Shown here one piece after another: positions 25,664 through 44,631 of a stretch of DNA of 64,000 bases. The notes beneath the pieces were generated by a model. It ran no database searches. It was not told the origin of the DNA and saw only the letters and a list, made by a program, of their open reading frames with translations. Position 1 is the stretch's first letter. Every line of letters starts with the position of its first letter. The DNA comes from Spirochaetia bacterium (GTDB taxonomy: Bacteria > Spirochaetota > Spirochaetia > SZUA-6 > Bin103): contig CBDBOV010000005.1 in assembly GCA_965208575.1 (NCBI GenBank), forward strand, positions 800,001 to 864,000, given 5' to 3'. A program made the translations under genes and the position numbers.

Positions 25664-25750
25664 GCTGCTACTGTGGGCGTGGTGCGGCCTGGTGGCAAGC
25701 AGCCGGCCGTGAGATACCGCGCAGCACGCGCACGCCGCCCCGTAACCTAT

Positions 25751-25806
25751 TGCCTCACGTAAAAATCTAACCTTACGGTGAGCGTGCCTCACGTAAGAAT
25801 CTAACC
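25751..25806 (+). repeat. Left-end tandem subterminal repeats
   Basis: tgcctcacgtaaaaatctaacc (25751-25772) and tgcctcacgtaagaatctaacc (25785-25806), 34-nt period. Confidence 0.85.
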
Positions 25807-25857
25807 GAAAGGGAGGCGGAGAACGAGGGGGGAGCGCGAGGGGGGAGACTCATAAAT

Positions 25858-25866
25858 TGTGGATAA
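25858..25866 (-). promoter_or_regulatory. DnaA box consensus near the left end of the element
   Basis: TGTGGATAA is the reverse complement of TTATCCACA; a degenerate AGTGGATAG follows; same in copy 2 at 40148-40156. Confidence 0.45.
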
Positions 25867-26043
25867 GTGGATAGGCTGCTGGGCGACCGGCCGGGTTGAT
25901 TCAAGCACACCAACGCGACCGGGGGCGTATCTGGTTGGTCGGCGCGGATGAGGAGGCGTCAACGGCAGGGAGGTGGTCGGTGCCGTGTCGTGTCGCTGAC
26001 CGAAGAGGGGGCGGACGGGTCTGGAGGCGACTTCGGTGCTGGT

Positions 26044-26178
26044 GACACGGGGATGTCCAGACACCACCTCGTGTCGCGGAGAGGCCTTACAGCGCGGCTG
26101 AGGCGACATTTCTTGACGCCGACCGTCTGGCTCACGGATATACGGGCGTCAGAGACGCTCAGAAGTCATTTGCCGAGC
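26044..26178 (+). repeat. Internal degenerate direct repeat A
   Basis: Core ccagacaccacctcgtgtcg..ggccttacagcgcggctgaggcgac shared with 28016-28152. Confidence 0.8.
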
Positions 26179-26323
26179 CGGGTGATGCCGCCCACGCCGC
26201 GAGCGGCGCGCAGGTTGCTGCGGAGCGCACGGAGCGAGGCGCCCCGGACAACTGCACCGAGGTGCGTTGCCCGGGGCAGGGTCATGACAATTCCCCACCG
26301 CCGGGACGGGGTAGGCGACGAGG

Positions 26324-27997
26324 TTGCGACACCGGAGCCGTCGGGATCGAACGGGGCGGAGGAGATGCTGTACCCCGCTGACGGACGGAGGGCGTAGCCC
26401 GACCGGAGTCAGCCGGCGCGGTGCCGTGGAGGCCACCGTGGACGACGCCGAGATGGCGGACCAGGCAGCCAAGCTGCTCGCTTCCGGGATGAGCGGCTCA
26501 GCCTGCGCTCGCGAACTCGGCATCCCGGTGAGCACCTTCAACGAGAACCGCCGCGCCGGCGTCATCACAGATCCCACCCGGGAGCCCGCCGCCAGCGCCG
26601 AGGTTGCGCCGGCGGCCACCACCACTGATCACCCGGTCAGCACCGCCGCCGCGGTCAGCGACCCGGCGGTCGCCACTGAGCGCGCCAGCCGCGACGCCCG
26701 CGACAAGCACGCGCCCATGGGCCGCGCGGCGCGCGACGTGGAACGCCGCACGCTCGCCAGAGCCGGCCTGCTGACCGAGGCCACACCAGCGTTCGTCGAG
26801 CCCGCCCACGCGGTCGCTGGCGGCGGCGTGCTGGCCGCACTGGCGATGCTGCTGCGCGAGGGCCTGCTCACCGCCGCCAACCGCCTGTTCCGCCTGCCGG
26901 CCGGATTCTACGGCCTGACCACCATCCTCCTGTTCGTCGCCTGCATGACCCTGGCCCGGGTGCGCAACCCCGAGAGCCTGCGCTACCAGGCACCCGGCGA
27001 GTGGGGCGCCATCCTCGGCCTCGACCGCTGTCCGGAGACCAAGACGCTGCGCCGCAAGATCAGGCTGCTGGCCAGCGCCGAGCACACCGTGCGCGATTGG
27101 CAATCGGTACTGGCGCGTACCTGGGCCAGCGAGCACGACGACGACTGGACGACGCTGGCCGTGGATGGCCACGTGAAGGTGTACACCGGGCGCAACGGGC
27201 GGTTGCCGAAACACTTCGTCGCACGCCAGAAGCTGTGTCTGCCGGCGTCGGTGAGCTACTGGATCAACGCCCTCGGCGGCGCACCGCTGCTGTGCCTGCA
27301 CAAGGCGCTGGACCCGAAGCCGGTGAATGCGATCAAGCACGACGTGGTGCCGCAGTTGCAGCACCTGGGGGTGGTGACCGAAGCGGCCCCCGACCTGACC
27401 GGAGCACCGGCCGGTACCCCGCAGCTGACCCTGGTGTTCGACCGCGAGGGCTGGAGCCCGGACCTGTTCAAGCGCCTGGCCCGGCGTGGCATCGCCTGCA
27501 TCACCTGGCACAAGAACTTCAACGGCGCGGACTGGCTGCCGGAAGACTTCCACACCTTCGAGGTACCGATCCATGGTCCCGCCGGCACCAGCACGACTGC
27601 GGTTGATCTGGCCGAGCAGCCGATCATGCTGCGCAACGGGCTGGTGGTGCGCCAGATCCGGCGGCGTCTGGCCAACGGTCGTCAGGTGGCGGTGATCACC
27701 ACGCACCCGCAGATGCCGTTGGCGCAGGTCGCCGGCGCCATGTTCTCGCGCTGGTCGCAGGAGAACTTCTTCAAGTACCTGCGCGAGCAGTTCAACCTTG
27801 ACGCGCTGCCGAGCCATGACCTTGCGCCGCCGGAGCCCGACGCACGGGTCGTGAACCGGTGCGCCGGGCCCTGGAAAAGAGCATCAGGCGGGTACGCAGC
27901 CGGCTGGCAGCGGTCCGCAATCGCCTCGCCGAGGCACTGCAGGGACGGCACCGGGACTCCGCCACCCGGCTTACGGTCGCGGATAAAGTTGCACTGA
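26324..27997 (+). pseudogene. Truncated, frameshifted second transposase carried as cargo
   Basis: HTH, LARVRNPESLRYQAPGEWGAILGLDRCPETKTLRRKI, VDGHVKVY, LVFDREGWS, MFSRWSQENFFKY; frameshift near 27857, after which another frame reads VRRALEKSIRRVRSRL and breaks off. Confidence 0.78.
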
Positions 27998-28015
27998 ATT
28001 GCATGGTTATGCATA

Positions 28016-28152
28016 GACACGGGAGTATCCAGACACCACCTCGTGTCGTGGAGGGGCCTTACAGCGCGGCTGAGGCGACGTTTTCTCATCGCTGACCGCC
28101 CATTCTCCGATTATCGACCGTCAGACCCGCCTGAGAGGGTCATTTTGCCGTG
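28016..28152 (+). repeat. Internal degenerate direct repeat B, at the 3' end of the DDE transposase
   Basis: Partner of 26044-26178; includes the transposase stop codon. Confidence 0.8.
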
Positions 28153-29414
28153 CGACCGCTGCCACCACGCTCCTCGCTCGGTGTTTGCACCGTGCTTGGT
28201 GCGGCCTTGGCGGTCTTGCTGACGTTCAGCTGCAGCAGATCCTCGGTCAACCTGGTCAGCTCGCGCTTGAGGGCGACCGGATTCAACGTCGCGTACTGCT
28301 GCTTGAGGCGGTTCTTCACCTTCTCGCTCACCGACTCGGAGGCCAGCATGCGGTGATACGGCGTCTGCGGGTCGTCATAGATGCGGCGCACCTTGCTGCC
28401 GGTGCGGGTTTTCTTCACCAGCTTCACCGAGGGATAGAAGAAGTTCACCAGCAGGCACAGCGGGCGGTATATCGCGTTGAGGGCAGCCAGTTCCCGGTCG
28501 GTGTCGTAACGCAGGTGGCCGACCGCCCGTCGCACCACGTGGCCATTCTTCTGCTCGACGTAGCAGGTGTCGTTCTTGCGATGCGGGCGACCCCGAGTGA
28601 ACGTGATGCCGTGCGCTTCGCAATAGCGCAGCAAATGATGATTGATGAACTCGCTGCCGTTGTCGGTGTCGATCCCCCGCATCACGATCGGCAGGCTCTG
28701 CCGGGCAGCGTCGATCGCCTCGTGGGTCCAGCGCTGCGCCTTGTTCTGCACGCCGTACAGGTCGACCCAGCCGGTGTCAACGTCGGTGATGGTGAGCGTG
28801 TGGCAGAAGTCGCCTGACGCGTTGCCGCCTTCATGGCCCACCAAGTCGATCTCGAAGAAGCCCGGCTCCTGCTCGTCCCAGTCAGCGAAGGTTCGGATCG
28901 CGATCTGATCCTTCAGGAGGGTGCCCGGCTTGGTGTGCGTGCGACCCTTCAGGCGCAGCCGTGCGCGCTCCTGCTGCAGCAGCCGGTCGATGGTCGCGGC
29001 GCTGATGGTCTGCAGCTTGCCGCGCACCGCTGCGGTCAGCTCGATCTCGCCGAACGACTCCAGCGTCGGCAGCATGGTGCGCAGCACGACCACCAGGCGC
29101 TTGCCGCACATGCAGTCGAACACGTACCAGATCAGCTTCAGAGCGACCAGCACCTCCTGGTCGTAGCGCCGCGGTCGCACGCGGCGCTGGGCAGGCCGCG
29201 GACGCCCGACCACCAGCTTCACCAGTGTGCCGTCGACTCGCACCATGCGGGTCCGTCCCCACCAGGTCAACAGATGGATCGCGTACTTGCGCTGGTACCC
29301 GGTCGACTCGACGAACTCGTCGAGTATGCGCCCCTTCTCCTTCTTGCCCGCCCGACGATACCGCTGCGCGTGCTGCTCGGTGAGCTCTCGCCTTGAACTC
29401 ATCTTCAACCCCAT
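28140..29414 (-). CDS. DDE integrase-core transposase (ISNCY-type), copy 1
   Basis: RYRRAGKKEKGRILDEF..TGYQRKYAI N-terminus; FEIDLVGH, IDTDNGSEF, YVEQKN supply D-D-E. Confidence 0.9.
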   Translation of the reverse strand: MGLKMSSRRELTEQHAQRYRRAGKKEKGRILDEFVESTGYQRKYAIHLLTWWGRTRMVRVDGTLVKLVVGRPRPAQRRVRPRRYDQEVLVALKLIWYVFDCMCGKRLVVVLRTMLPTLESFGEIELTAAVRGKLQTISAATIDRLLQQERARLRLKGRTHTKPGTLLKDQIAIRTFADWDEQEPGFFEIDLVGHEGGNASGDFCHTLTITDVDTGWVDLYGVQNKAQRWTHEAIDAARQSLPIVMRGIDTDNGSEFINHHLLRYCEAHGITFTRGRPHRKNDTCYVEQKNGHVVRRAVGHLRYDTDRELAALNAIYRPLCLLVNFFYPSVKLVKKTRTGSKVRRIYDDPQTPYHRMLASESVSEKVKNRLKQQYATLNPVALKRELTRLTEDLLQLNVSKTAKAAPSTVQTPSEERGGSGRTAK

Positions 29415-29480
29415 CTCCTCCGGAACCTCCTCACGTCCCTCGGAGAGGCTCCAACCGGACCCGGAAGGTCCAGCCCGTTC

Positions 29481-29535
29481 GGTTAGATTTTTAGATGAGG
29501 CATGCTTTCGCTACGGTTAGATTTTCGATGAGTCA
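29481..29535 (-). repeat. Right-end tandem subterminal repeats
   Basis: ggttagatttttagatgaggca (29481-29502) and ggttagattttcgatgagtca (29515-29535), inverted relative to the left-end repeats, 34-nt period. Confidence 0.85.
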
Positions 29536-29545
29536 ATGCGCGTAA

Positions 29546-29574
29546 TTGACTTAGTTTAGTCTAATCGTTATCGT
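29546..29574 (+). promoter_or_regulatory. Sigma70-type promoter of the phd-vapC operon with palindromic operator
   Basis: TTGACT-17 bp-TATCGT; gacttagtttagtc imperfect palindrome overlaps; GAGGAGG downstream. Confidence 0.7.
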
Positions 29575-29597
29575 AGGCATCCAGCGAGGAGGCGACC

Positions 29598-29831
29598 GTG
29601 ACCACCGTCAACATCCACCAGGCGAAGACCCACCTCTCCCGGCTTCTGGTCAGGGTTGCCGAGGGCGAGGAAGTAGTCATTGCCCGTGCCGGAACACCCG
29701 TTGCCCGGCTCACCCGCTATACGGGGGCCAAGCCGCGCCGCATCCTGGGCCGCGACGAGGGTCTGTTCGAGGTACCCGATGACTTCGACGCGCCGCTGCC
29801 GCCCGACGTGCTCGCCGGCTTCGAGTCGTGA
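29598..29831 (+). CDS. Phd/YefM family antitoxin
   Basis: VNIHQAKTHLSRLL..V..GEEVVIARAGTPVARL...PDDFDAPLP. Confidence 0.9.
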   Translation: MTTVNIHQAKTHLSRLLVRVAEGEEVVIARAGTPVARLTRYTGAKPRRILGRDEGLFEVPDDFDAPLPPDVLAGFES

Positions 29832-30118
29832 AGGTACTGCTGGACACGCATGTGTGGCTCTGGAGCGTGGTGTACCGTCTCGGCAGGCTGGACCTTCCAG
29901 AGCCTCCCGCGATGTTCATTGAGCCGCGGTTGGTCCGCGACGGTATCGAGTCGCTGCCGATCGAGCACCGTCATGCCTGCAGGGTGGCGGAGCTGCCCGA
30001 GCACCACCGCGACCCGTTCGACCGGCTGCTCGTTGCCGTGGCGCAACTGGAATCGCTCACGCTCGCAACGACCGATCCGGCACTTGAACACTACGACGTT
30101 CCGCTTCTGATGACCTGA
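29828..30118 (+). pseudogene. vapC: VapC PIN toxin with internal in-frame deletion
   Basis: LLDTHVWLW joined almost directly to RLGRL; the S..S.WE segment is absent; HRDPFDRLL retained; 96 aa. Confidence 0.72.
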
Positions 30119-30140
30119 GCGCGAGGATCGGCGCCGTGGG

Positions 30141-30539
30141 TCACCGGTCGAGAAGGTGGTGCAACCGGGCGGCCGTTGCGGCACGGTCGATCTGGCCGGC
30201 GGCAACGTCGATCGTAAGGCGCTCCCAGGGGTCGGTGTCGAGCTGCTCGGCAGGAAGCAGCCCGTTCTCGCTCAGAAACACGAGACAGGTGGCCAGCGCA
30301 ACCCGCTTGTTGCCGTCCATGAAGGGGTGGTTGCTGCACAGGTAGAACAGGTACGCCGCTGCAACGTCGATCGGGTCTTCAATCAGGGGCTGGCCGAACA
30401 TGGTTGCCTGTGGTGCCGCCAACGCCGACTCCAGCAGCGCCGCGTCACGCAGACCCTCCATACCGCCGTGCGCGGCCAGCACCTCCGAGTGAATCGCCCT
30501 CACCGCCGCGACCGTCGGATGGGCGAGCCGCTTGCTCAC
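30141..30539 (-). CDS. doc: Doc (death-on-curing) family toxin
   Basis: HGG..GLRD..LLESAL, NHPFMDGNKR; GTGA overlap with the antitoxin. Confidence 0.9.
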   Translation of the reverse strand: MSKRLAHPTVAAVRAIHSEVLAAHGGMEGLRDAALLESALAAPQATMFGQPLIEDPIDVAAAYLFYLCSNHPFMDGNKRVALATCLVFLSENGLLPAEQLDTDPWERLTIDVAAGQIDRAATAARLHHLLDR

Positions 30540-30763
30540 GACAGCCGCCGGAACAGCTCCTCGTTCTTGCCGATGAGACGCTTCGCCGTGGCGCGGGCGC
30601 GCCCGGCATCGATGACCGGACGAACCGGGGTCAGCGTGATGGTACCGCCCTCGTGCACCGCGACGGCAAGCTGGTCTCCCACCTTGAGGTGCGCCAGGTC
30701 CATGAGCGCCACGTCGAAAATGATCCCCTGCGAGTTGCCGATCTTGCGGATGGTCTTCGTCAT
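30536..30763 (-). CDS. AbrB/MazE family antitoxin
   Basis: IRKIGNSQGII...LKVGD, C-terminal ELFRRLS. Confidence 0.88.
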   Translation of the reverse strand: MTKTIRKIGNSQGIIFDVALMDLAHLKVGDQLAVAVHEGGTITLTPVRPVIDAGRARATAKRLIGKNEELFRRLS

Positions 30764-30870
30764 GTCTTTGAGTAAAACTACGTTTTACTTGCGTGCGGGG
30801 CAACTGTGCGACGGGTTGCGATGTGTGGACCCGCGGGGCGTGGTTCGCTACCTTCCCCGGTGTTGATTCG

Positions 30871-32181
30871 ATGGCTGTCACGACCACTGCCGACACGTCC
30901 GCCCACGCGGCCGAGCGCTGGGAGCTGCTGACTCGCGGCACCCTGTTCGCGGTGCTGCCCGCGGAGGAACAGGGCCTGCTGCGCACGCTGCACGAGCGCT
31001 ATCGGCTCACGGTGCAGGAGATGCGCCTGCTGTGCGAGGCGGCGCGCGACCTGCAGATGTGGGGAGAGCCGCGCCTGGATGCGTGGTGGCGCGCCGCCGA
31101 ACGGCGCCTGGCGGCGGCCGCCGAAACGGTGCCGGTGAGAGCGCTCAAACAACGGCTCATCAAGGATTTGCGGGAGCATCTCGAAGGCCTGCGGGAGGCT
31201 GCTACCCGATACGGCGCGGAACCTTCGCCGTCGCCCGGGCGCCCGCCGCTGCACGTGGTTTCGGAGACCTCGGGCGATGCGGTGTTCGGCGACTGCCCGG
31301 TGCGTTCCGAGCGCACCCTGTGCTGCAACCTGAAGACCATCGACGCGGTCAAGAACTGCGCTTTCGGGTGCAGCTATTGCACCATCCAGACCTTCTACGG
31401 CGACCGGGTGGCGATCGACGCCGACCTCGGCGCCAAGTTGCGCGGCCTCGACCTGGAGCCGGGGCGCTTCTACCACATCGGCTCGGGGCAGTCCTCCGAC
31501 TCGCTGGTGTGGGGCAACCGCGGCGGCATTCTCGACGATATGTGCGACTTCGCCCGCGCGCATCCCGACGTGCTGCTGGAGTTCAAGACCAAGTCGGCCA
31601 ACGTCACCTACTTCCTGGATCCGGCGCGCACCATCCCGGCCAACGTGGTGTGCAGTTGGTCGCTCAACACGCCTCCGGTGATCGAGCACGAGGAGCACTT
31701 CACGGCGCCGCTGGAACAGCGTCTGCGTGCGGCACGGCGGGTCGCGGACCGCGGCATCAGGGTGGCGTTCCACTTCCATCCGATGGTGCACTACGCCGGC
31801 TGGGAGCACGACTATCCGGCTCTGGCACAGCGCCTCATCGCCGGGTTCTCGCCCGCGGAGGTGTCGTTCGTGTCGTTCGGGTCGGTCACGTTCATCAAGC
31901 CGGTGATCAAGGCGATCCGCCGCCGCCGCGAGCCGACGCGCATCCTGCAGACTGACCTGGTCAAGGATCCGCATGGCAAGCTGACCTATCCCGACGACCT
32001 CAAGGTGGCGATGTTCAGCACCATGTACCGCGCGCTGGCGCCGTGGCGGGATCGGGTGTTCATGTACCTGTGCATGGAGAAGCCGGCGATCTGGGAGCGC
32101 GCGTTCGGCTGGCGGTTCGGCTCCAACGAGGAGTTCGAGCAGGCGTTCGCCGCCGGTACGCTGTACCGGCAGCGCGCCTGA
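30871..32181 (+). CDS. Spore photoproduct lyase-like radical SAM protein with N-terminal extension
   Basis: NCAFGCSYC (CxxxCxxC), GSGQSSDSL, EFKTKS, WSLN, AFHFHP, YLCME. Confidence 0.85.
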   Translation: MAVTTTADTSAHAAERWELLTRGTLFAVLPAEEQGLLRTLHERYRLTVQEMRLLCEAARDLQMWGEPRLDAWWRAAERRLAAAAETVPVRALKQRLIKDLREHLEGLREAATRYGAEPSPSPGRPPLHVVSETSGDAVFGDCPVRSERTLCCNLKTIDAVKNCAFGCSYCTIQTFYGDRVAIDADLGAKLRGLDLEPGRFYHIGSGQSSDSLVWGNRGGILDDMCDFARAHPDVLLEFKTKSANVTYFLDPARTIPANVVCSWSLNTPPVIEHEEHFTAPLEQRLRAARRVADRGIRVAFHFHPMVHYAGWEHDYPALAQRLIAGFSPAEVSFVSFGSVTFIKPVIKAIRRRREPTRILQTDLVKDPHGKLTYPDDLKVAMFSTMYRALAPWRDRVFMYLCMEKPAIWERAFGWRFGSNEEFEQAFAAGTLYRQRA

Positions 32182-32234
32182 ACGGCGCGGCGTCGCGACC
32201 GTGACTGCACGCGGGGAAATCGGTTCACGCGCGC

Positions 32235-32699
32235 GTGCTGGCGCTGCTGCGGCAGGCCGGAGCGGCGTTCACCGAACGCGAGCACGAAGCCGTGCGCACC
32301 AGCGAGGAGGCGGCGGCCGTGCGCGGCGCCCCGCTGCACAGCGGCGCCAAGGCGCTGGTGTTGAAGGCGGCGGACCGGTTTCTGCTGGCGGTGCTGCCGG
32401 CGGACTGCTCCCTCGACAGCAGGGCGCTGCGCGGCGTCGCCGGCACCCGCCGCATCCGCTTCGCCAACCGAGAGGAATTGCTGGAGCTGACCGGACTCAC
32501 GCCCGGGGCGGTGCCGCCGTTCGGCAGTCTGTTCGGCATGGAGACCGTCTGCGACCCGAAGCTGGCCGACAACGGGCAGATCAACTTCAACGCCGGCAGC
32601 CACCGCCACTCGGTGCAGATCGCGTACGCCGACTGGCAGGCGATCGAGCGCCCTCGGTTGGCGGTGATCGCCGGGCGCGCCGATTCCGCGGATGCATGA
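32235..32699 (+). CDS. YbaK/ProX aminoacyl-tRNA deacylase family
   Basis: TSEEAA.VRG, GAKALVLK, PGAVPPFG, FNAG. Confidence 0.85.
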   Translation: MLALLRQAGAAFTEREHEAVRTSEEAAAVRGAPLHSGAKALVLKAADRFLLAVLPADCSLDSRALRGVAGTRRIRFANREELLELTGLTPGAVPPFGSLFGMETVCDPKLADNGQINFNAGSHRHSVQIAYADWQAIERPRLAVIAGRADSADA

Positions 32700-33183
32700 G
32701 TTGTGCAGCACGATTCGGCTGGCGGCGCCGCTGGCCGAGGTGTTCGCGTTCTTTGCCGATGCCCGAAACCTGGAGGTGCTGACCCCGGGCTGGCTGCACT
32801 TCCGGGTGGTTTCACAGCCGCCGCCGGCGATGGCGGCGGGTACCCGCATCGACTACCGCCTGCGCCTGCGCGGCGTGCCGGTGCGCTGGCAGAGCGAGAT
32901 CACCGCCTGGGAGCCGCCGTTCCGGTTCGTGGACGAGCAACGCCGCGGTCCCTACCGGGTATGGATCCACGAGCACCGGTTCGCGGTTGAGCGGCACACC
33001 GACGGCACCGAGGTGGTGGTCGCGAGTGACAAGGTACGCTACGCGGCGCCGGGCGGGCGGCTGGTGAACCGCCTGCTGGTGGCCGGGGACCTGCGCCGCA
33101 TCTTCGCTTATCGCAGCGTCCGGCTGCGCGAGCGGTTCGGTGCGGCGGACGAGCCCGGCGCGGCAGGCGCGGCGGCGGGCTGA
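32692..33183 (+). CDS. SRPBCC family protein
   Basis: VFAFFADARNLEVLTP, W.SEI..WEPP.RFVDEQ..GPY..W.HEH. Confidence 0.85.
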   Translation: MHELCSTIRLAAPLAEVFAFFADARNLEVLTPGWLHFRVVSQPPPAMAAGTRIDYRLRLRGVPVRWQSEITAWEPPFRFVDEQRRGPYRVWIHEHRFAVERHTDGTEVVVASDKVRYAAPGGRLVNRLLVAGDLRRIFAYRSVRLRERFGAADEPGAAGAAAG

Positions 33184-33223
33184 AGCGCGCCTGCCGCACG
33201 ACGTGGTATAACGGAGACGACGC

Positions 33224-34033: not shown

Positions 34034-34043
34034 CCGCGGCGCC

Positions 34044-36043: not shown

Positions 36044-36122
36044 CCGGCGCCGGGCGCCGCCATCACCAGCCCGCCAGCGGCGCGGCGCCACCCGTGCCGG
36101 CGACCGCAGCCCGCGGTTGGCG

Positions 36123-37073
36123 TCAGGCGCCGCGGCGCGGCGTGGTCTGGCGGATGATGTCGTCTACCATCTCGCGGACGCCGAAGTGGGGGCGCCAGCC
36201 CAGCTCGTCCGCGATCAGGCTGCAGTCGAGCCGCCATTCACGGTAGCCGCTTACCACCTGCATGATCACGGGGTCGGGCGCGAAGCTGAACTGCGCGCCG
36301 GGCAGGGTGCGGCGCACGTGCGCGATCATCTCGCGCACCACCACCCGCCCCGAGGCCACGTTGTAGATGCGCCCCGGCGCCTGCGGTGCGGTAGCCAGGC
36401 GGGCGAGCGCGCTGACCGCGTCATCGAGGTAGACCACGGGGTACGCGGTGTCTTCGGTCACCTCGATCGCGTACGGTTCGCCGCGTGCGGCTTTCTCGGG
36501 GATCAGCGAGGTGAACATGCTCGCCGAGCCCGCCGCCTGCCGGAACGGGCCGGTGACCGCGGCCATGCGCACCGCGCGCACGTCCATGCCGTGGCGGCGC
36601 ACGTGCAGCAGCCCCATCTCCTCGGCGCAGCGCTTGGTGTACCCGTACCAGCCGTCGGGCTCGGTGGCCATGCCCTCGCGGATCGGCTGCGGCAGGCCGC
36701 GCCCGTAGACGCCGATGGTACTCGCCAGCACCACCCGCCGCTTGCCATGTTCGCGCGCCGCATCGAGCACGTGGTACGTGCCGCTCACGTTGACCGCCAT
36801 GCCGAGGACGGGGTCGTGGTCGCAGCCGGCGGTGAGCAGCCCGGCCAGGTGGACGATCGGATCGTCGCCGCCACTGGCCGCCACCGCCGCCCGCACCGCA
36901 GCGGCATCGCGGATGTCGCCGGCCATGAAGCGCATCCCCTCCGGCCACCGGGCGCCGCCCGCCGCGCCCGGCTCGGCCAGGTCGAACCCCACCACTTCGC
37001 GGCCTTCGGCGACGAACCGGCAGGCCAGCGCCCGGCCGATGAATCCGGCGCCGCCGGTAATCAGAACTGCCAC
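36123..37073 (-). CDS. NAD-dependent epimerase/dehydratase
   Basis: LITGGAGFIG, HLAG, YGYTK; GTG start 6 nt after TATGAT. Confidence 0.88.
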   Translation of the reverse strand: MAVLITGGAGFIGRALACRFVAEGREVVGFDLAEPGAAGGARWPEGMRFMAGDIRDAAAVRAAVAASGGDDPIVHLAGLLTAGCDHDPVLGMAVNVSGTYHVLDAAREHGKRRVVLASTIGVYGRGLPQPIREGMATEPDGWYGYTKRCAEEMGLLHVRRHGMDVRAVRMAAVTGPFRQAAGSASMFTSLIPEKAARGEPYAIEVTEDTAYPVVYLDDAVSALARLATAPQAPGRIYNVASGRVVVREMIAHVRRTLPGAQFSFAPDPVIMQVVSGYREWRLDCSLIADELGWRPHFGVREMVDDIIRQTTPRRGA

Positions 37074-37409
37074 GCGGTCATCATAGCGACCGTCACGTAT
37101 GCCGGCCACTCGGCTGCGGCGGGTACCGTGCAAGATACCGGCGAATGCGGACACCAAGCGGTGCGGCACCGCGGCCGTGTGCCGCAACGGGATCTACCTG
37201 TGGATCGACGGCGAGTGGCGTTGACCCGTGCCGCCACCCGTATCGCCCCCGCATCGCTCGATGCGGTTGACCCACCGTGTCCACGCACTTAGCATGCTTC
37301 GCGTCGTCTGCGGCGATGCGATAGCCCGCCGTCGGACCGTGCGAGCGCTCCTTGCGGGCCGGGTCGCACGAAGGACAGGACTGTTGTTCACGCTTATGGG
37401 GAGAATGAG

Positions 37410-38402
37410 ATGCACTTGAACGTCAAGGCAGTGTTCGTATTCGCCGTTCTGGCATCGGCCGTGGTGGCGAGCGTGGCGGCCGAGGACCGGACGACTGCCG
37501 GTCAGGTCGTGGACGATGAAACCCTCAAGGCGTTCGTCGAAGGGGCCGCGGCGGAAATCGCGGCGATCACGGACGTCGCCGCAGGCGGGCGGTTGCGAGA
37601 CAGGTTTAGAACCGACCCCGCCTGGCACGCCGGATCGATGTTCCTCATCCTGTTCACCCAGGGCGGGAACCCGTTCATCCACGGGGACGATCGCGCGGCT
37701 GAAAACAGGGACTTGTTCGCAATCGAGGACGACAACGGCTTCCGGGTGGTCGAGGCACTCCTCGCGGCCGGCGCCCGGGGCGGCGACTTCGTCCGGTATC
37801 ACGACGGCGAGCCGAAGACCGCATACGCCGTCGAATACACCTCCGGAATCAGCGGAAGACAGTTCGTGCTGGTCGGCGGCTACTCGCAGGACACCTCCCA
37901 TGCGCCGCTGCGTGTCGCGGATCTGCCGAGACCCGCCGTCACCGCATCGGAGGTCGTAGACCGCGAGACCCTGGTTGCCTTCGTCGAGGAAGCGGCCAGG
38001 GTATACAGCGAGCGCGCCCTCAATACAACAGGCTACCGAGACTTTGCCGCGGTCAGAAACGCCTTCCGGCAAGAAGGAGGGCATTGGAAGTCGGGTTCCG
38101 TCTATTTGTGGATCGTGGCGGCCGGGGACATCATCTTTTTTCACGCAACCGAGCCGTTTCGCGAAGGCAAGCCGACCGACCTGACGAGGACGGACGTCAA
38201 CGGGGTGAAGTTCGCCGAGGAACTGATCGGAGGCGCACGGCGCGAGGGCCAGAGGTTTCTTCAGTACAACTATGACGACCCGACCATCGAGGGGGACGAG
38301 GACACCGGCTCCCCGAAGCTCGGCTATGCGGTGAGCATCCCGGTATTCGCAACCGGCCAAAAGGCCGTCATCGGCTCCGGCGTCTATCTCGGCGCACGCT
38401 GA
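37410..38402 (+). CDS. Secreted protein with two tandem single-Cache-like domains
   Basis: Signal peptide; two repeats of V.D.ETL.AFVE.A...W..GS..L...D.NG...Y...K..YAV. Confidence 0.7.
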   Translation: MHLNVKAVFVFAVLASAVVASVAAEDRTTAGQVVDDETLKAFVEGAAAEIAAITDVAAGGRLRDRFRTDPAWHAGSMFLILFTQGGNPFIHGDDRAAENRDLFAIEDDNGFRVVEALLAAGARGGDFVRYHDGEPKTAYAVEYTSGISGRQFVLVGGYSQDTSHAPLRVADLPRPAVTASEVVDRETLVAFVEEAARVYSERALNTTGYRDFAAVRNAFRQEGGHWKSGSVYLWIVAAGDIIFFHATEPFREGKPTDLTRTDVNGVKFAEELIGGARREGQRFLQYNYDDPTIEGDEDTGSPKLGYAVSIPVFATGQKAVIGSGVYLGAR

Positions 38403-38593
38403 CCTCCAGGCGGCAGAGGCTTGCGTCAAGCGGGTGGCGCGCCGGAATCGAGGCCGCGTCCGGCGAGCCGTTGACCACCACGGCAGCCGCGCTGCCGCAG
38501 CCGGCCTGTGCGGCAGCCGCCGGGCGTGCCTGATCGACGGCGAATGGTGTTAACTTGCGGTGCCGCTCTCCCCGATACCAGTAGTGAGACACC

Positions 38594-39982
38594 ATGAATA
38601 GACCGACATTTCCGGGACCTGGAGCGGTCCTGTCAACCAGAGTTCCGCAGATCGGTTCGCCCGGCCGGCAGGCCGGCGTCACGCGCGCCGCGGCGCGGGC
38701 GGCGGCGGTCGTGCTGCGGGCGGCTGCCGTTGCGCTCGCGGGCGCGGCGGCGATGCTGCCCCTGTCGTGCGCGTCTACGGACGTGGTGCCTGCCCCCGGC
38801 GCCATGGCCTCGCGCGCCGAGCATCCCGTCGCCGCCGAAGAGGTACGCGCCGTGTGGGTGGTCCGGCAATCGCTGTCCAGCCCGGCCGCCGCGCGCGAGG
38901 TGGTGGAGCAGGCCGCGGCCGGCGGATTCAACACGCTGCTGGTGCAGGTGCGCGGGCGCGGCGATGCGCTGTACCGCTCGGCACTGGAACCGCGTCCCGA
39001 GTTCCTGGACGGCCAGGGGGACTTCGATCCGCTGCAACTGGTGCTGGACGAAGCGCGCGCGCGCGGCATGGCGGTGCACGCGTGGGTGAACGCCTACCTG
39101 GTGTGGGGACCGGTCGACCCTCCGCGCCACCCCGGACACCTGGTGAACGCGCATCCCGAGTGGCTCGCGGTCCCGTATGCGTTGGGCCGCGACCTGTACC
39201 ACGTCGATCCGCGCGATCCGTCCTACGTCCGGCGCCTGATCGAATACTCCGCCGCCAACATCGAGGTGGTGGAGGGGTTGTATACCAGCCCCTCCCACCC
39301 CGGCGTGCAGGAGCGCCTGCACGCCGTCTGGATGGAACTGGCGGCCGCCTACGAGCTGGATGGCATCCACCATGACTACATCCGCTTCCCCACCTCGGCG
39401 TTCGACTATTCGCGTACCACGCTGGAGCGATTTCAGGCGTGGGTGAAGCCGCGCATCGCCGCCCACCGCCACGCCGGGCTGCTGGCGGCGGCGCGGGACG
39501 ATCCCTACGCGTTCGCCGAGGCGCTGCCCGGCCACTGGGACCGGTTCCGGCGCGACAGCGTCTCCGACCTGGTGCGCCGCGTCCATCTCGGCGCCAAGGA
39601 ACGCCGCCCCGGCCTGGTAGTGTCGGCGGCGGTGCTGCCCGAGTGGCGCGGGGCGGCGCGCTGGAATCTGCAGGCGTGGACCTCGTGGCTGGCCGAGGGC
39701 ACCCTCGACGTGGCGGTGCCGATGGCGTATACGACCGACACCGAGGAGTTCCACCGTTGGGTCGAAGCGGCCCTGGCCGCCGCCGGGTCGCCCGAGCGCG
39801 TGTGGGCCGGGGTGGGGGCGTACCGCAATCCGGTGGACCTGACCGTGGCACAGATCGACGAGGCGCGCACGATCGGCGTCGGCGGCGTCGCGGTGTTCTC
39901 CTACGACAAGCCCTCGCACACCCCGCCGCCGGATGGGGCCGCCGCGGCGCTGCACCGCATCGGTCTCGCGGCGTTTCGATAG
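38594..39982 (+). CDS. Glycoside hydrolase-like family 10 (GHL10) lipoprotein
   Basis: EVRAVWV, FNTLLVQVRGRGDALY.S, FDPL, VHAWVN, DGIHHDYIRFP, PMAY; start uncertain. Confidence 0.85.
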   Translation: MNRPTFPGPGAVLSTRVPQIGSPGRQAGVTRAAARAAAVVLRAAAVALAGAAAMLPLSCASTDVVPAPGAMASRAEHPVAAEEVRAVWVVRQSLSSPAAAREVVEQAAAGGFNTLLVQVRGRGDALYRSALEPRPEFLDGQGDFDPLQLVLDEARARGMAVHAWVNAYLVWGPVDPPRHPGHLVNAHPEWLAVPYALGRDLYHVDPRDPSYVRRLIEYSAANIEVVEGLYTSPSHPGVQERLHAVWMELAAAYELDGIHHDYIRFPTSAFDYSRTTLERFQAWVKPRIAAHRHAGLLAAARDDPYAFAEALPGHWDRFRRDSVSDLVRRVHLGAKERRPGLVVSAAVLPEWRGAARWNLQAWTSWLAEGTLDVAVPMAYTTDTEEFHRWVEAALAAAGSPERVWAGVGAYRNPVDLTVAQIDEARTIGVGGVAVFSYDKPSHTPPPDGAAAALHRIGLAAFR

Positions 39983-40613
39983 CAGCAGCGTGTTCGCGCG
40001 GCGGTTGGGCGGCGTCGACCAACCGGCGGCGGTCGCCTATTGCCTCACGTAAAAATCTAACCTTACGGTGAGCGTGCCTCACGTAAGAATCTAACCGAAA
40101 GGGAGGCGGAGAACGAGGGGGGAGCGCGAGGGGGGAGACTCATAAATTGTGGATAAGTGGATAGGCTGCTGGGCGACCGGCCGGGTTGATTCAAGCACAC
40201 CAACGCGACCGGGGGCGTATCTGGTTGGTCGGCGCGGATGAGGAGGCGTCAACGGCAGGGAGGTGGTCGGTGCCGTGTCGTGTCGCTGACCGAAGAGGGG
40301 GCGGACGGGTCTGGAGGCGACTTCGGTGCTGGTGACACGGGGATGTCCAGACACCACCTCGTGTCGCGGAGAGGCCTTACAGCGCGGCTGAGGCGACATT
40401 TCTTGACGCCGACCGTCTGGCTCACGGATATACGGGCGTCAGAGACGCTCAGAAGTCATTTGCCGAGCCGGGTGATGCCGCCCACGCCGCGAGCGGCGCG
40501 CAGGTTGCTGCGGAGCGCACGGAGCGAGGCGCCCCGGACAACTGCACCGAGGTGCGTTGCCCGGGGCAGGGTCATGACAATTCCCCACCGCCGGGACGGG
40601 GTAGGCGACGAGG

Positions 40614-42287
40614 TTGCGACACCGGAGCCGTCGGGATCGAACGGGGCGGAGGAGATGCTGTACCCCGCTGACGGACGGAGGGCGTAGCCCGACCGGAGTC
40701 AGCCGGCGCGGTGCCGTGGAGGCCACCGTGGACGACGCCGAGATGGCGGACCAGGCAGCCAAGCTGCTCGCTTCCGGGATGAGCGGCTCAGCCTGCGCTC
40801 GCGAACTCGGCATCCCGGTGAGCACCTTCAACGAGAACCGCCGCGCCGGCGTCATCACAGATCCCACCCGGGAGCCCGCCGCCAGCGCCGAGGTTGCGCC
40901 GGCGGCCACCACCACTGATCACCCGGTCAGCACCGCCGCCGCGGTCAGCGACCCGGCGGTCGCCACTGAGCGCGCCAGCCGCGACGCCCGCGACAAGCAC
41001 GCGCCCATGGGCCGCGCGGCGCGCGACGTGGAACGCCGCACGCTCGCCAGAGCCGGCCTGCTGACCGAGGCCACACCAGCGTTCGTCGAGCCCGCCCACG
41101 CGGTCGCTGGCGGCGGCGTGCTGGCCGCACTGGCGATGCTGCTGCGCGAGGGCCTGCTCACCGCCGCCAACCGCCTGTTCCGCCTGCCGGCCGGATTCTA
41201 CGGCCTGACCACCATCCTCCTGTTCGTCGCCTGCATGACCCTGGCCCGGGTGCGCAACCCCGAGAGCCTGCGCTACCAGGCACCCGGCGAGTGGGGCGCC
41301 ATCCTCGGCCTCGACCGCTGTCCGGAGACCAAGACGCTGCGCCGCAAGATCAGGCTGCTGGCCAGCGCCGAGCACACCGTGCGCGATTGGCAATCGGTAC
41401 TGGCGCGTACCTGGGCCAGCGAGCACGACGACGACTGGACGACGCTGGCCGTGGATGGCCACGTGAAGGTGTACACCGGGCGCAACGGGCGGTTGCCGAA
41501 ACACTTCGTCGCACGCCAGAAGCTGTGTCTGCCGGCGTCGGTGAGCTACTGGATCAACGCCCTCGGCGGCGCACCGCTGCTGTGCCTGCACAAGGCGCTG
41601 GACCCGAAGCCGGTGAATGCGATCAAGCACGACGTGGTGCCGCAGTTGCAGCACCTGGGGGTGGTGACCGAAGCGGCCCCCGACCTGACCGGAGCACCGG
41701 CCGGTACCCCGCAGCTGACCCTGGTGTTCGACCGCGAGGGCTGGAGCCCGGACCTGTTCAAGCGCCTGGCCCGGCGTGGCATCGCCTGCATCACCTGGCA
41801 CAAGAACTTCAACGGCGCGGACTGGCTGCCGGAAGACTTCCACACCTTCGAGGTACCGATCCATGGTCCCGCCGGCACCAGCACGACTGCGGTTGATCTG
41901 GCCGAGCAGCCGATCATGCTGCGCAACGGGCTGGTGGTGCGCCAGATCCGGCGGCGTCTGGCCAACGGTCGTCAGGTGGCGGTGATCACCACGCACCCGC
42001 AGATGCCGTTGGCGCAGGTCGCCGGCGCCATGTTCTCGCGCTGGTCGCAGGAGAACTTCTTCAAGTACCTGCGCGAGCAGTTCAACCTTGACGCGCTGCC
42101 GAGCCATGACCTTGCGCCGCCGGAGCCCGACGCACGGGTCGTGAACCGGTGCGCCGGGCCCTGGAAAAGAGCATCAGGCGGGTACGCAGCCGGCTGGCAG
42201 CGGTCCGCAATCGCCTCGCCGAGGCACTGCAGGGACGGCACCGGGACTCCGCCACCCGGCTTACGGTCGCGGATAAAGTTGCACTGA
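40614..42287 (+). pseudogene. Cargo transposase pseudogene, copy 2
   Basis: Identical translation and frameshift to 26324-27997. Confidence 0.78.
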
Positions 42288-42429
42288 ATTGCATGGTTAT
42301 GCATAGACACGGGGGTATCCAGACACCACCTCGTGTCGTGGAGGGGCCTTACAGCGCGGCTGAGGCGACGTTTTCTCATCGCTGACCGCCCATTCTCCGA
42401 TTATCGACCGTCAGACCCGCCTGAGAGGG

Positions 42430-43704
42430 TCATTTTGCCGTGCGACCGCTGCCACCACGCTCCTCGCTCGGTGTTTGCACCGTGCTTGGTGCGGCCTTGG
42501 CGGTCTTGCTGACGTTCAGCTGCAGCAGATCCTCGGTCAACCTGGTCAGCTCGCGCTTGAGGGCGACCGGATTCAACGTCGCGTACTGCTGCTTGAGGCG
42601 GTTCTTCACCTTCTCGCTCACCGACTCGGAGGCCAGCATGCGGTGATACGGCGTCTGCGGGTCGTCATAGATGCGGCGCACCTTGCTGCCGGTGCGGGTT
42701 TTCTTCACCAGCTTCACCGAGGGATAGAAGAAGTTCACCAGCAGGCACAGCGGGCGGTATATCGCGTTGAGGGCAGCCAGTTCCCGGTCGGTGTCGTAAC
42801 GCAGGTGGCCGACCGCCCGTCGCACCACGTGGCCATTCTTCTGCTCGACGTAGCAGGTGTCGTTCTTGCGATGCGGGCGACCCCGAGTGAACGTGATGCC
42901 GTGCGCTTCGCAATAGCGCAGCAAATGATGATTGATGAACTCGCTGCCGTTGTCGGTGTCGATCCCCCGCATCACGATCGGCAGGCTCTGCCGGGCAGCG
43001 TCGATCGCCTCGTGGGTCCAGCGCTGCGCCTTGTTCTGCACGCCGTACAGGTCGACCCAGCCGGTGTCAACGTCGGTGATGGTGAGCGTGTGGCAGAAGT
43101 CGCCTGACGCGTTGCCGCCTTCATGGCCCACCAAGTCGATCTCGAAGAAGCCCGGCTCCTGCTCGTCCCAGTCAGCGAAGGTTCGGATCGCGATCTGATC
43201 CTTCAGGAGGGTGCCCGGCTTGGTGTGCGTGCGACCCTTCAGGCGCAGCCGTGCGCGCTCCTGCTGCAGCAGCCGGTCGATGGTCGCGGCGCTGATGGTC
43301 TGCAGCTTGCCGCGCACCGCTGCGGTCAGCTCGATCTCGCCGAACGACTCCAGCGTCGGCAGCATGGTGCGCAGCACGACCACCAGGCGCTTGCCGCACA
43401 TGCAGTCGAACACGTACCAGATCAGCTTCAGAGCGACCAGCACCTCCTGGTCGTAGCGCCGCGGTCGCACGCGGCGCTGGGCAGGCCGCGGACGCCCGAC
43501 CACCAGCTTCACCAGTGTGCCGTCGACTCGCACCATGCGGGTCCGTCCCCACCAGGTCAACAGATGGATCGCGTACTTGCGCTGGTACCCGGTCGACTCG
43601 ACGAACTCGTCGAGTATGCGCCCCTTCTCCTTCTTGCCCGCCCGACGATACCGCTGCGCGTGCTGCTCGGTGAGCTCTCGCCTTGAACTCATCTTCAACC
43701 CCAT
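42430..43704 (-). CDS. DDE integrase-core transposase (ISNCY-type), copy 2
   Basis: Identical translation to 28140-29414. Confidence 0.9.
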   Translation of the reverse strand: MGLKMSSRRELTEQHAQRYRRAGKKEKGRILDEFVESTGYQRKYAIHLLTWWGRTRMVRVDGTLVKLVVGRPRPAQRRVRPRRYDQEVLVALKLIWYVFDCMCGKRLVVVLRTMLPTLESFGEIELTAAVRGKLQTISAATIDRLLQQERARLRLKGRTHTKPGTLLKDQIAIRTFADWDEQEPGFFEIDLVGHEGGNASGDFCHTLTITDVDTGWVDLYGVQNKAQRWTHEAIDAARQSLPIVMRGIDTDNGSEFINHHLLRYCEAHGITFTRGRPHRKNDTCYVEQKNGHVVRRAVGHLRYDTDRELAALNAIYRPLCLLVNFFYPSVKLVKKTRTGSKVRRIYDDPQTPYHRMLASESVSEKVKNRLKQQYATLNPVALKRELTRLTEDLLQLNVSKTAKAAPSTVQTPSEERGGSGRTAK

Positions 43705-43835
43705 CTCCTCCGGAACCTCCTCACGTCCCTCGGAGAGGCTCCAACCGGACCCGGAAGGTCCAGCCCGTTCGGTTAGATTTTTAGATGAGGCATGCTTTCG
43801 CTACGGTTAGATTTTCGATGAGTCAATGCGGGTCG

Positions 43836-43864
43836 TTGTCGCCGTTCGGCCGCCCCACTATGAT
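43836..43864 (+). promoter_or_regulatory. Sigma70-type promoter of the dioxygenase gene, near-leaderless
   Basis: TTGTCG-17 bp-TATGAT, 8 nt before ATG 43873. Confidence 0.65.
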
Positions 43865-43872
43865 GGATCACG

Positions 43873-44631
43873 ATGACTGCAGCGACCGATCGCGCCCGGC
43901 GCTACCGGCAGGACGGCATCCTGTACCCGATCGACCTGTTCAGCGGCGGCGAGATCGCCGGCTACCGGCGCGCGTTCGACCGCCTCGACGAGACCGAGGG
44001 CATCGACCGCCCGCAGGAGCGCAACCGCCAGCGCCACTTCGACCTGGAGTTCGTGTGGCGGATGGCGTCGCATCCCACGCTGATTGTGATCATGCAGGAA
44101 CTGATGGGGCCGGATCTGCTGCTGATGGCCACCGATTTCTTCGTCAAATACGGCAGTCCGGATGCCGACGCGTTCGTGGCCTGGCACCAGGACGTGACCT
44201 ACTGGGGGCTGGAGCCGCCCGACGCGCACACCGCCTGGATCGCGATCGACGACAGCGATGTCGACAACGGCAGCATGCGCGTCATCCCCGGCTCGCACCG
44301 GCGCGGCATCGTGACCCACGGCACCTCCGAGCGCGCCGGCAACGTGCTCAGCATCAACCAGGAGATCCCCGACGAGCTGGTCGACACCTCCGCCGCCGTC
44401 GACGTGGAGCTGCGCGCCGGCCAGATCTCGATCCACGACGGCCACCTGTTCCACGCCAGCCAGCCCAACCGCTCCCACCGGCGCCGCTGCGGCATGACGG
44501 TGCGCTTCATCCGTCCCGACGTGCGCCAGGCCACCGGAAACTCGCTCGGCTCCGACTGGCGTCCGATCCTGCTCGCCGGCGAGGACCGCCACCACAACTT
44601 CACCCTCGCCGAGCCTCCCTTTCCCGGCTGA
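43873..44631 (+). CDS. Phytanoyl-CoA dioxygenase family protein
   Basis: WHQDVTYW, NGSMRVIPGSH, HDGHLFHAS.PN.S.RRR. Confidence 0.9.
   Translation: MTAATDRARRYRQDGILYPIDLFSGGEIAGYRRAFDRLDETEGIDRPQERNRQRHFDLEFVWRMASHPTLIVIMQELMGPDLLLMATDFFVKYGSPDADAFVAWHQDVTYWGLEPPDAHTAWIAIDDSDVDNGSMRVIPGSHRRGIVTHGTSERAGNVLSINQEIPDELVDTSAAVDVELRAGQISIHDGHLFHASQPNRSHRRRCGMTVRFIRPDVRQATGNSLGSDWRPILLAGEDRHHNFTLAEPPFPG

Follow-up and report, generated by a model that had tools for sequence, protein, structure and literature searches.

An insertion sequence positioned at a fixed distance upstream of sigma-70-type promoters in a Spirochaetia genome

A 64,000-nucleotide stretch of the genome of a Spirochaetia bacterium (GenBank assembly GCA_965208575.1, contig CBDBOV010000005.1, positions 800,001 to 864,000 of the forward strand; hereafter the window, whose own numbering is used for coordinates) contains two copies of a 3795-bp insertion sequence, each followed, exactly 5 bp beyond its right end, by the -35 hexamer of what appears to be an intact sigma-70-type promoter. 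The arrangement recurs at most of the copies elsewhere in this genome and at many insertions of related elements in other genomes, and we regard targeting of promoters at the time of insertion as almost certainly real.

Two copies in the window abut promoter-like hexamers

The two copies lie at 25746-29540 (copy A) and 40036-43830 (copy B), both running from left end to right end on the plus strand, and differ at one base (99.97% identity by alignment). The boundaries of copy A were drawn from an alignment of both window copies and the 29 genomic copies described below, and those of copy B from the alignment of the two window copies. Comparison of the flanks places copy A between two copies of CGTAA (25741-25745 and 29541-29545) and copy B between two copies of GGTCG (40031-40035 and 43831-43835), a pentamer that is present only once in empty sites. 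At both insertions the right end, ...GAGTCAATGCG, is followed by the 5-bp target duplication and then directly by promoter-like hexamers. For copy A these read TTGACT-17-TATCGT (29546-29574), a putative promoter that is intact and abuts the duplication; it was identified both in the sequence and by a consensus scanner, for which it is the sole promoter-like site between 29350 and 29700, with 0.1 expected. For copy B they read TTGTCG-17-TATGAT (43836-43864), and the same layout is found in relatives without the element. An initial annotation of the window had described these two insertions with their different duplications, and both hexamer pairs beyond the right ends; alignment and flank comparison confirm each of these points at the positions given here.

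The promoter beside copy A would serve a phd gene (29598-29831; PF02604) and a PIN/vapC-like gene (29828-30118; PF01850), a plus-strand pair (29598-30118) that begins 24 nt past the -10 hexamer. Downstream of copy B, also on the plus strand, is a gene for a PhyH-family dioxygenase (43873-44631; PF05721). Its ATG lies 8 nt past the -10 hexamer, and the mRNA is therefore probably leaderless or nearly so.

Target sites across the genome

Searching the whole genome (6.5 Mb, 67% G+C, 6 contigs) yielded 29 copies of the element, all at least 99.9% identical, of which 26 are full length; copies differ by no more than 3 bases in 3795. The initial remark that only two sites are visible thus holds for the window and not for the genome. 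A perfect 5-bp duplication flanks 25 of the 29 copies, and the remaining four comprise one with a right-end truncation, one whose right tip is altered, one interrupted by a contig end and one with mismatched flanks. The right duplication of the mismatched copy (C5:312345-316140), ATGAC, is identical to the left flank of the copy at the contig end (C6:1-3744), which indicates either recombination or rearrangement, or an assembly break at the repeat. In one sequencing run (X1), the summed contig depth was approximately 84-170 over window positions 40008-43857 and approximately 5-16 on the flanks, which fits a multi-copy repeat, and no copy number was taken from these values.

Target sites were compared across the 26 copies with an intact right end, the three copies lacking one having been dropped. 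Counting outward from the right end, +6 is T and +8 is G in 26/26 flanks, and at +7 there are 19 T, 6 G and one A, such that +7 is T or G in 25/26 and the motif T-T/G-G occupies +6 to +8 in the same proportion of sites. Less strictly, +9 is A in 15/26 flanks and +10 is C in 16/26. A -10-like TAnnnT begins at +28 to +30 in 21 of the 26 flanks, the looser nAnnnT is present in all of them, and T-T/G-G and the -10 occur together at 20/26 sites. Orientation is identical in every case (26/26), with the transposase-proximal end toward the -35 and the transposase gene pointing away from the promoter. The fixed register and single orientation that had been read from the two window copies are thus a property of the whole set. 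No conserved column was found in the left flanks of the own-genome copies.

These frequencies are far from the genomic background. At 200,000 random genome positions, T-T/G-G was found at 2.8%, the -10 at 0.72% and both at 0.023%, so that the enrichment over controls anticipated in the initial annotation, for the -35-like motif (25/26) as well as for the -10 (21/26), is clearly present. The same annotation had noted that enrichment of TTG alone would reduce the pattern to a simple target-sequence preference. This reduction fails, as a correctly spaced TAnnnT accompanies only 436 of the 7839 TTGAC sites in the genome (5.6%), compared with 21/26 insertion sites. An extended -10 (TG), considered as compensation for a weak -35, was found at 3/17 versus 10/63.

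The genomic frequencies also bear on the possibility that the element has nothing more than a local T-N-G(-A-C) preference, and that selection has purged insertions elsewhere, leaving only the copies upstream of promoters as survivors. The invariant T and G at +6 and +8 do represent a real local preference, and insertion just upstream of an intact core promoter is plausibly the least harmful outcome for the host. However, a correctly spaced -10 is present at only 0.9% of the 361,425 T-T/G-G sites in the genome, so that approximately 99% of insertions would have to have been purged. Outside gene calls, defined as open frames with high third-position G+C (a rough definition that marks 62% of the genome as coding), the -10 still accompanies only 1.6% of T-T/G-G sites and 8.6% of TTGAC sites (binomial P <1e-18 for 21/26). 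In addition, copies that differ by 3 bases or fewer in 3795 are recent, leaving little time for purging, and neither the single orientation in 26/26 copies nor the same pattern in independent lineages sits well with survival by selection. We therefore consider this explanation improbable.

Empty sites and downstream genes

Sites without the element provide a view of the target before insertion. In two sister genomes, the region upstream of the PhyH gene reads GGTCG-TTGTCG-17-TATCAT (G002, locus L170) and GTCG-TTGTCG-17-TATCAT (G001, locus L171). A contig from a public sequencing run (X5) joins window position 40030 directly to 43831, skipping 3800 bases with 5 letters common to both sides, the summed length of the element and one of its duplication copies. 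These empty sites in relatives and in run X5 indicate that the promoter predates the insertion and stays intact, in agreement with the initial view that the core promoter is preserved.

They also bear on whether the pattern could be an artefact or chance, with the hexamers being part of the element or arising from assembly or repeat collapse. Such an explanation can draw on nothing beyond the two-site sample on which the pattern was first noticed. The hexamers vary between sites and fall beyond the duplications, the same promoter exists without the element in relatives and in another run, and both features coincide at 20/26 sites against 0.023% of random positions. We consider the probability of an artefact to be negligible.

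A same-strand open frame with high third-position G+C starts within 200 nt at 17/22 sites (20 further sites and the two in the window), and in several of these frames the start is at +36 to +46, suggesting that the mRNAs are leaderless. Of the 19 downstream frames tested, 14 were assigned to a Pfam family, and the families include RNase P protein, a LytTR regulator, Phd, a family-5 solute-binding protein, a DEAD helicase, an ammonium transporter, DUF433, a MutS-related protein, PhyH, an ABC ATPase, a Mu-transposase C-domain protein, PIN and a permease. Because these genes are unrelated, the site class appears to be the promoter as such and not one regulon. One copy, at locus L178 (C2:132061-134060), lies ahead of rnpA (PF00825), which starts at +219 with room for a short gene between; the element therefore seems to land at housekeeping-operon promoters as well. 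Judged by sequence, the targets show the attributes of sigma-70-type promoters, namely a -35 and a -10 separated by 16-18 nt and a gene downstream on the same strand.

Related elements in other genomes

Among the genomes of the window's taxonomic family, matches were found in 15/24, from which 40 near-full-length loci were taken; their transposases are 45-86% identical to that of the window. A conserved tip lies 100-125 bp before the transposase start in 39/40 of these loci, and reading outward from it there are 5 nt and then a -35-like hexamer. Two loci were dropped from the counts, one with its tip outside the pattern window (L049) and one with the same flank as another locus (L041, identical to L038). 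In the remaining 38, T-T/G-G is present in 31, TAnnnT at +28 to +30 in 29, and both in 23. Of the seven loci without T-T/G-G, six nevertheless have a -10 in register. Duplications of 5 bp were found in 8/8 related elements checked, and on a Mycobacterium riyadhense plasmid TTG occupies +6 to +8 in 3/4 distinct flanks.

The transposase has at least 7969 homologues. A wider scan, with one genome per species, in which Pseudarthrobacter sp. S9 was seen to carry relatives in three copies, yielded 526 stretches encoding relatives, of which the best 80 were analysed. These come from records titled Acidobacteriota, Actinomycetota, Chloroflexia, Nitrospirota, Armatimonadetes, Chlorobiota, Spirochaetia and others. 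The tip pattern was unmatched in 16 of the 80 loci and the flank was too short in 7, leaving 57 usable sites. In this set T-T/G-G was present at 27 sites (control 3.2%), the -10 at 34 (control 1.35%) and both at 22 (control 0.03%), and where T-T/G-G was lacking a -10 in register was still found at 12/30 sites, again against a control of 1.35%. Three of the unmatched loci (L088, L124 and L126), when inspected by eye, also lie 5 nt from TTGACA, TTGCAC or TTGACC. The proposal that site choice follows promoter architecture, made from two insertions, is therefore upheld by the 26 own-genome sites, by the 38 from sister genomes and by many of the 57 from other phyla.

In each of these sets the -10 begins most often at +29, then at +30 and then at +28, corresponding to spacers of 17, 18 and 16 nt, with the -35 register remaining fixed. 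Sigma-70 promoters have spacers in the same range of 16-18 nt. The targets were also sorted by the motif in the element's own tip. Elements with a TTGCC tip are found at 13 TTGAC and 2 TTGCC targets, and those with a TTGAC tip at 20 and 3, respectively.

Transposase and element ends

The transposase of copy A is a 424-aa DDE protein encoded on the minus strand at 28140-29414, with its counterpart in copy B, recognized by sequence, at 42430-43704 on the same strand. PF00665 (rve) matches residues 182-279 with 36.9 bits against a cut-off of 32.6, and D190, D251 and E287 do not vary among 23 aligned sequences. The AlphaFold model (mean predicted local distance difference test score 77) has a three-helix N-terminal domain and a hairpin, followed by a second helical domain, an RNase H fold at residues 186-326, a small beta barrel and C-terminal helices. 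The top structural matches of this model are retroviral integrases in intasomes and IstA (E ~1e-6), and a sequence search of the PDB yielded only weak integrase-core matches, with E values of 0.03 or worse.

The top-scoring NCBIfam model is NF033577 (IS481), at 47.1 bits against a cut-off of 224, and on this basis membership in IS481 was rejected. The transposase resembles IS481 members in being an rve-type DDE enzyme of similar size encoded by a single gene, although it scores far below the family cut-off. IS481 members target short palindromic sequences, not promoters. Plasmid-borne relatives that are 39-45% identical carry the annotation 'ISNCY family transposase', and the element is best described as a recently active DDE/rve insertion sequence that is unclassified and of ISNCY type, ISNCY being a holding label with no defined family. 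With its 5-bp duplication, inverted ends and 29 near-identical copies, it has the attributes of an autonomous insertion sequence.

The ends of the element, CCTATTGCC... and ...GTCAATGCG, are imperfect terminal inverted repeats with 52-nt arms. The left end (25746-25813, plus strand), recognized as one half of an inverted pair and by the same layout in relatives, has the tip CCTATTGCCTCA and contains two direct copies of a presumed transposase-binding site of ~22 bp ending AATCTAACC. The right, transposase-proximal end (29474-29540, plus strand) was found by sequence comparison to have two presumed binding-site copies as well, so that each end carries two ~22-bp sites with this ending. Read on the other strand, the transposase-proximal tip is CGCATTGACTCA, which is kept across the whole family; even distant relatives in rhizobia and Bacteroidota retain a tip of the form CG.ATTG.CTCA. 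The rve protein is the enzyme that matches these conserved ends. The tips of the element and its relatives themselves contain TTGAC or TTGCC 5 nt from the end.

Recognition of the promoter

Two mechanisms had been offered in the initial annotation, in which the transposase either reads the -35 region itself or is recruited through sigma or RNA polymerase, and the present evidence leans toward the second. We give even chances to the participation of RNA polymerase or sigma in targeting, in addition to a local T-N-G preference. The more specific model, in which the transpososome is tethered by promoter-bound RNA polymerase holoenzyme and takes sigma-70 region 4 at the -35 as its landmark, at the position of a class II activator, is our preferred but tentative reading, to which we assign somewhat less than even probability. 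Class II activators touch sigma region 4 directly upstream of the -35, and the host RpoD has a region 4.2 of canonical type. The primary sigma gene (L167, C3:1-1569) is cut by a contig start, and the named proteins most similar to it are annotated as RpoD from Spirochaetaceae, Treponema and Spirochaetia metagenome-assembled genomes.

Under the tethering model, the transposase would bind the two sites in each end, and the target-capture complex would be positioned by the promoter-bound holoenzyme, possibly anchored by sigma region 4 at the -35. The transposase would contribute the local base preference, T-N-G at +6 to +8. The ends are joined to the target with a 5-bp stagger, the duplication spanning about -40 to -36 of the promoter, always with the transposase-proximal end toward the -35 hexamer and the transposase gene reading away from the promoter. 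Core promoter and gene are left intact, making the site a safe harbour.

Four observations favour promoter-bound polymerase as the landmark. The -10 counts independently of the -35 sequence, the spacers vary between 16 and 18 nt while the -35 register stays the same, the second A and the last T of the -10 are the bases that are kept, and TTGAC is preferred even where the element's own tip is TTGCC. The second A and the last T of the -10 are the bases captured by sigma region 2.

The main competing explanation is that the transposase complex alone recognizes both parts of the target, a -35-like T-N-G-A-C 5 bp from the joint and a -10-like motif ~23 bp away, through helix-turn-helix domains or through different subunits and with no host protein, having evolved to mimic the specificity of sigma. 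We judge this possible, with a probability below that of tethering. The T at +6 and G at +8 in 26/26 sites fit such direct reading, as do the element's own tips, where TTGAC or TTGCC 5 nt from the end implies that a motif-reading domain exists in the complex, and the structural model predicts two N-terminal helical domains of a DNA-binding type. Specificity is also clade-bound, being lost in a rhizobial and a Bacteroidota clade and altered in a sub-lineage associated with DUF222 genes, as if it were encoded in the transposase. On the other hand, the -10 shifts one base either way with a fixed -35, as sigma-70 spacers do, which is hard to achieve with a rigid protein ruler. Many targets of relatives combine a poor -35 with a good -10 (the 12/30 sites above), TTGAC is still preferred by elements with a TTGCC tip, and the element ends have no -10-like partner at a matching distance. 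Profile comparison of the transposase with sigma-70 found no similarity (hhalign probability 0.12%), which also counts against mimicry of sigma and leaves a sigma-like reading domain unsupported. A complex prediction for the transposase with RpoD region 4 (residues 495-577) gave a score of 0.00 and was counted neither way. The related idea of end mimicry, in which the target is chosen because it resembles the element's own tip, is weakened by the TTGCC-tip elements that pick TTGAC targets.

Several points weigh against tethering by polymerase. The contact between transposase and polymerase is one that we infer, and the identity of the target sites as promoters is likewise read from their bases. 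T at +6 and G at +8 occur without exception (26/26) while +7 is relaxed, and ordinary promoter sets are less strict than this, so the transposase itself presumably reads at least those bases. The TTGAC or TTGCC in the element's own tip produces a right junction of the form GTCAA-N9-TTGAC, a hint of end-like target recognition. Copies on Mesorhizobium and Bradyrhizobium plasmids (L197-L199), which encode a 508-aa 'ISNCY family transposase' 38-41% identical to that of the window, have no promoter-like flank in 3/3 cases; in Sinorhizobium, four copies share one common flank and three have ambiguous ends. Bacteroidota, the phylum of genome G024 and of the locus L106 record ('Bacteroidetes bacterium'), were scanned as a phylum with a different primary-sigma promoter. 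Matches were found in 11/401 genomes, with relatives only 34-47% identical, and no common motif was found among six distinct flanks of an element with 34-35% identity (L209-L211 and L215-L217; four in G099 and one each in G111 and G207).

A further point of this kind comes from a Mycobacterium/Actinomycetota sub-lineage (40-45% identical; L121, L132, L133, L137, L145, L146, L151, L153, L160, L161 and L163), which sits in a different register beside DUF222 genes, at a distance of ~22 nt from a palindrome, CGAAC-N4-GTTCG, overlapping the DUF222 start codon. The palindrome, which we take to be the actinobacterial LexA box, was present in 7/12 flanks searched, and the downstream frames encode DUF222, presumably a REP13E12-type repeat gene, in 7/7 cases tested. 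This sub-lineage may have been retargeted to a different regulatory site, or it may descend from a single old insertion passed on together with the repeated gene. Because the rhizobial and Bacteroidota relatives lack promoter-like flanks, promoter targeting is a property of particular transposase clades and not of every relative, and this clade-bound behaviour implies that it belongs to the transposase clade and not simply to the polymerase. The expectation that homologous transposases also target promoters is thus borne out in sister genomes and for many relatives in other phyla, and not in the rhizobial and Bacteroidota clades. Among enterobacterial matches on Enterobacter plasmids, which are fragments of ~30% identity, no relative usable as a model was found.

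If tethering is correct, the transcription machinery would guide this bacterial DNA transposon to its targets, making the element a counterpart of Ty3 and TFIIIB. The near-universal -35/-10 architecture would then explain why relatives in Spirochaetota, Acidobacteriota, Actinomycetota, Chloroflexota, Nitrospirota and other phyla lie next to promoters, and the DUF222/LexA-box sub-lineages could be retargeted versions of the same tethering principle.

Comparison with known systems

The closest behavioural parallel is provided by the IS1202 family. Elements of the ISAjo2 type target the XerC side of dif and pdif sites and leave the bound site intact, and contact with XerC, the host protein bound to that DNA, has been proposed (Harmer, Pong and Hall 2023, PMC10132070). 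Like IS1202 elements as characterized there, the present element has one transposase, a 5-bp duplication and an extra binding site inside each end, and it inserts in one orientation at a fixed 5 bp from a protein-binding site, a likeness that extends to behaviour only. The family traits given in PMC10132070 are ends of the form TGT...ACA, a Q seven residues after the catalytic E and a duplication of 3-5 bp. In the present transposase E287 is followed by QKNGHVV, with a nearly invariant V294 as the seventh residue and R295 next. With V294 in place of Q, ends reading CCTATTG... and ...CAATGCG in place of TGT...ACA, and promoters as targets, the element belongs to a different family by those published traits, and membership in IS1202 was rejected.

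IS5 and IS1 have been found upstream of bgl, flhDC and fucAO in Escherichia coli (PMC11894529, PMC9678765, PMC9499468), and they resemble the present element in inserting upstream of promoters with effects on expression. Unlike the present targets, those IS5 and IS1 sites are described as regional hot spots selected for activation, with no fixed register to a -35 and no general targeting of promoters.

Other systems offer likenesses in target selection or chemistry. Tn7, acting with TnsD, inserts in one orientation at a set distance from the protein-bound attTn7, duplicating 5 bp of target, and so finds a harmless place by a conserved gene signal. It needs TnsA, TnsB, TnsC and TnsD and has one site per genome, whereas the present element, although similar in orientation, duplication and fixed distance, has one working transposase and a whole class of sites. 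Among eukaryotic elements, Ty3 is directed to RNA polymerase III start sites via TFIIIB, Tf1 to polymerase II promoters and murine leukemia virus (MLV) to promoters. These share with the present element a promoter-directed integration at a defined position that spares coding sequence, and an integrase-type catalytic fold. However, they are eukaryotic and reverse-transcribing and their partners are known, whereas the present element is a bacterial DNA transposon whose partner we infer.

Target-selective transposons known to date include Tn7, the dif-hunting IS1202 elements, RNA-guided IS110 and the CRISPR-associated transposons (CASTs). A full-text literature search, whose scope did not extend to most subscription journals, ISfinder and TnCentral, found no insertion sequence described as targeting the -35 region or promoters as a class, and there is a substantial chance that this is the first transposon of bacteria for which the transcription machinery acts as guide. 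If so, guidance of bacterial transposition by the transcription apparatus could be tested directly on this element. Every copy would mark a real promoter, and the family would thereby annotate promoters naturally in uncultured phyla. Each insertion would also sever the core promoter from everything upstream of -41, including activator sites and UP elements, and 29 copies arriving in a burst could therefore change regulation widely while leaving genes undamaged. Integration by one protein beside any sigma-70 promoter, with the promoter left unbroken, could be developed into a broad-host safe-harbour tool. The differences between clades raise the question of how one DDE scaffold changes its landmark, from promoters to DUF222/LexA-box sites to no visible preference.

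Passenger gene and other features

The initial picture of a single transposase holds in that the rve enzyme is the working one, although the element has two transposase-like genes. The second, on the plus strand at 26453-27997 in copy A (514 aa as called; longest open frame from 26324) and at 40743-42287 in copy B, encodes a C-terminally truncated member of PF21804 (Transposase_29) of 514-557 aa, compared with ~766-774 aa in full-length relatives. The closest related element (L049) has the left 500 bp in common but lacks this gene, and contigs of other public runs (X5, X6 and X8) skip ~1540 bases at this position. The PF21804 protein is thus a truncated passenger, carried as cargo, and not a working transposase. 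Related elements are ~1.6-3.8 kb long, the length differing between the transposase gene and the distal end (~0.3-2.4 kb), and the shortest contigs with relatives suggest a basic element of ~1.35-1.45 kb.

The remaining open frames of the element matched no Pfam family, a search of the element against Rfam gave nothing meaningful, and the consensus scanner did not find a promoter for the transposase gene in the right or left end. The passenger gene is bracketed by two direct copies of a 68-nt repeat, 91% identical to each other, at 26044-26111 and 28016-28083 on the plus strand (40334-40401 and 42306-42373 in copy B), the second lying just 3' of the transposase stop codon. The repeat did not fold better than its shuffles (z -0.2 to -1.9) and had no Rfam match. 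It is also present twice in L049, the relative without the passenger.

Elsewhere in the window, between 20000 and 23300, two stretches 2811 bases apart are 74-81% identical over ~500 bases and look like tandem paralogous genes.

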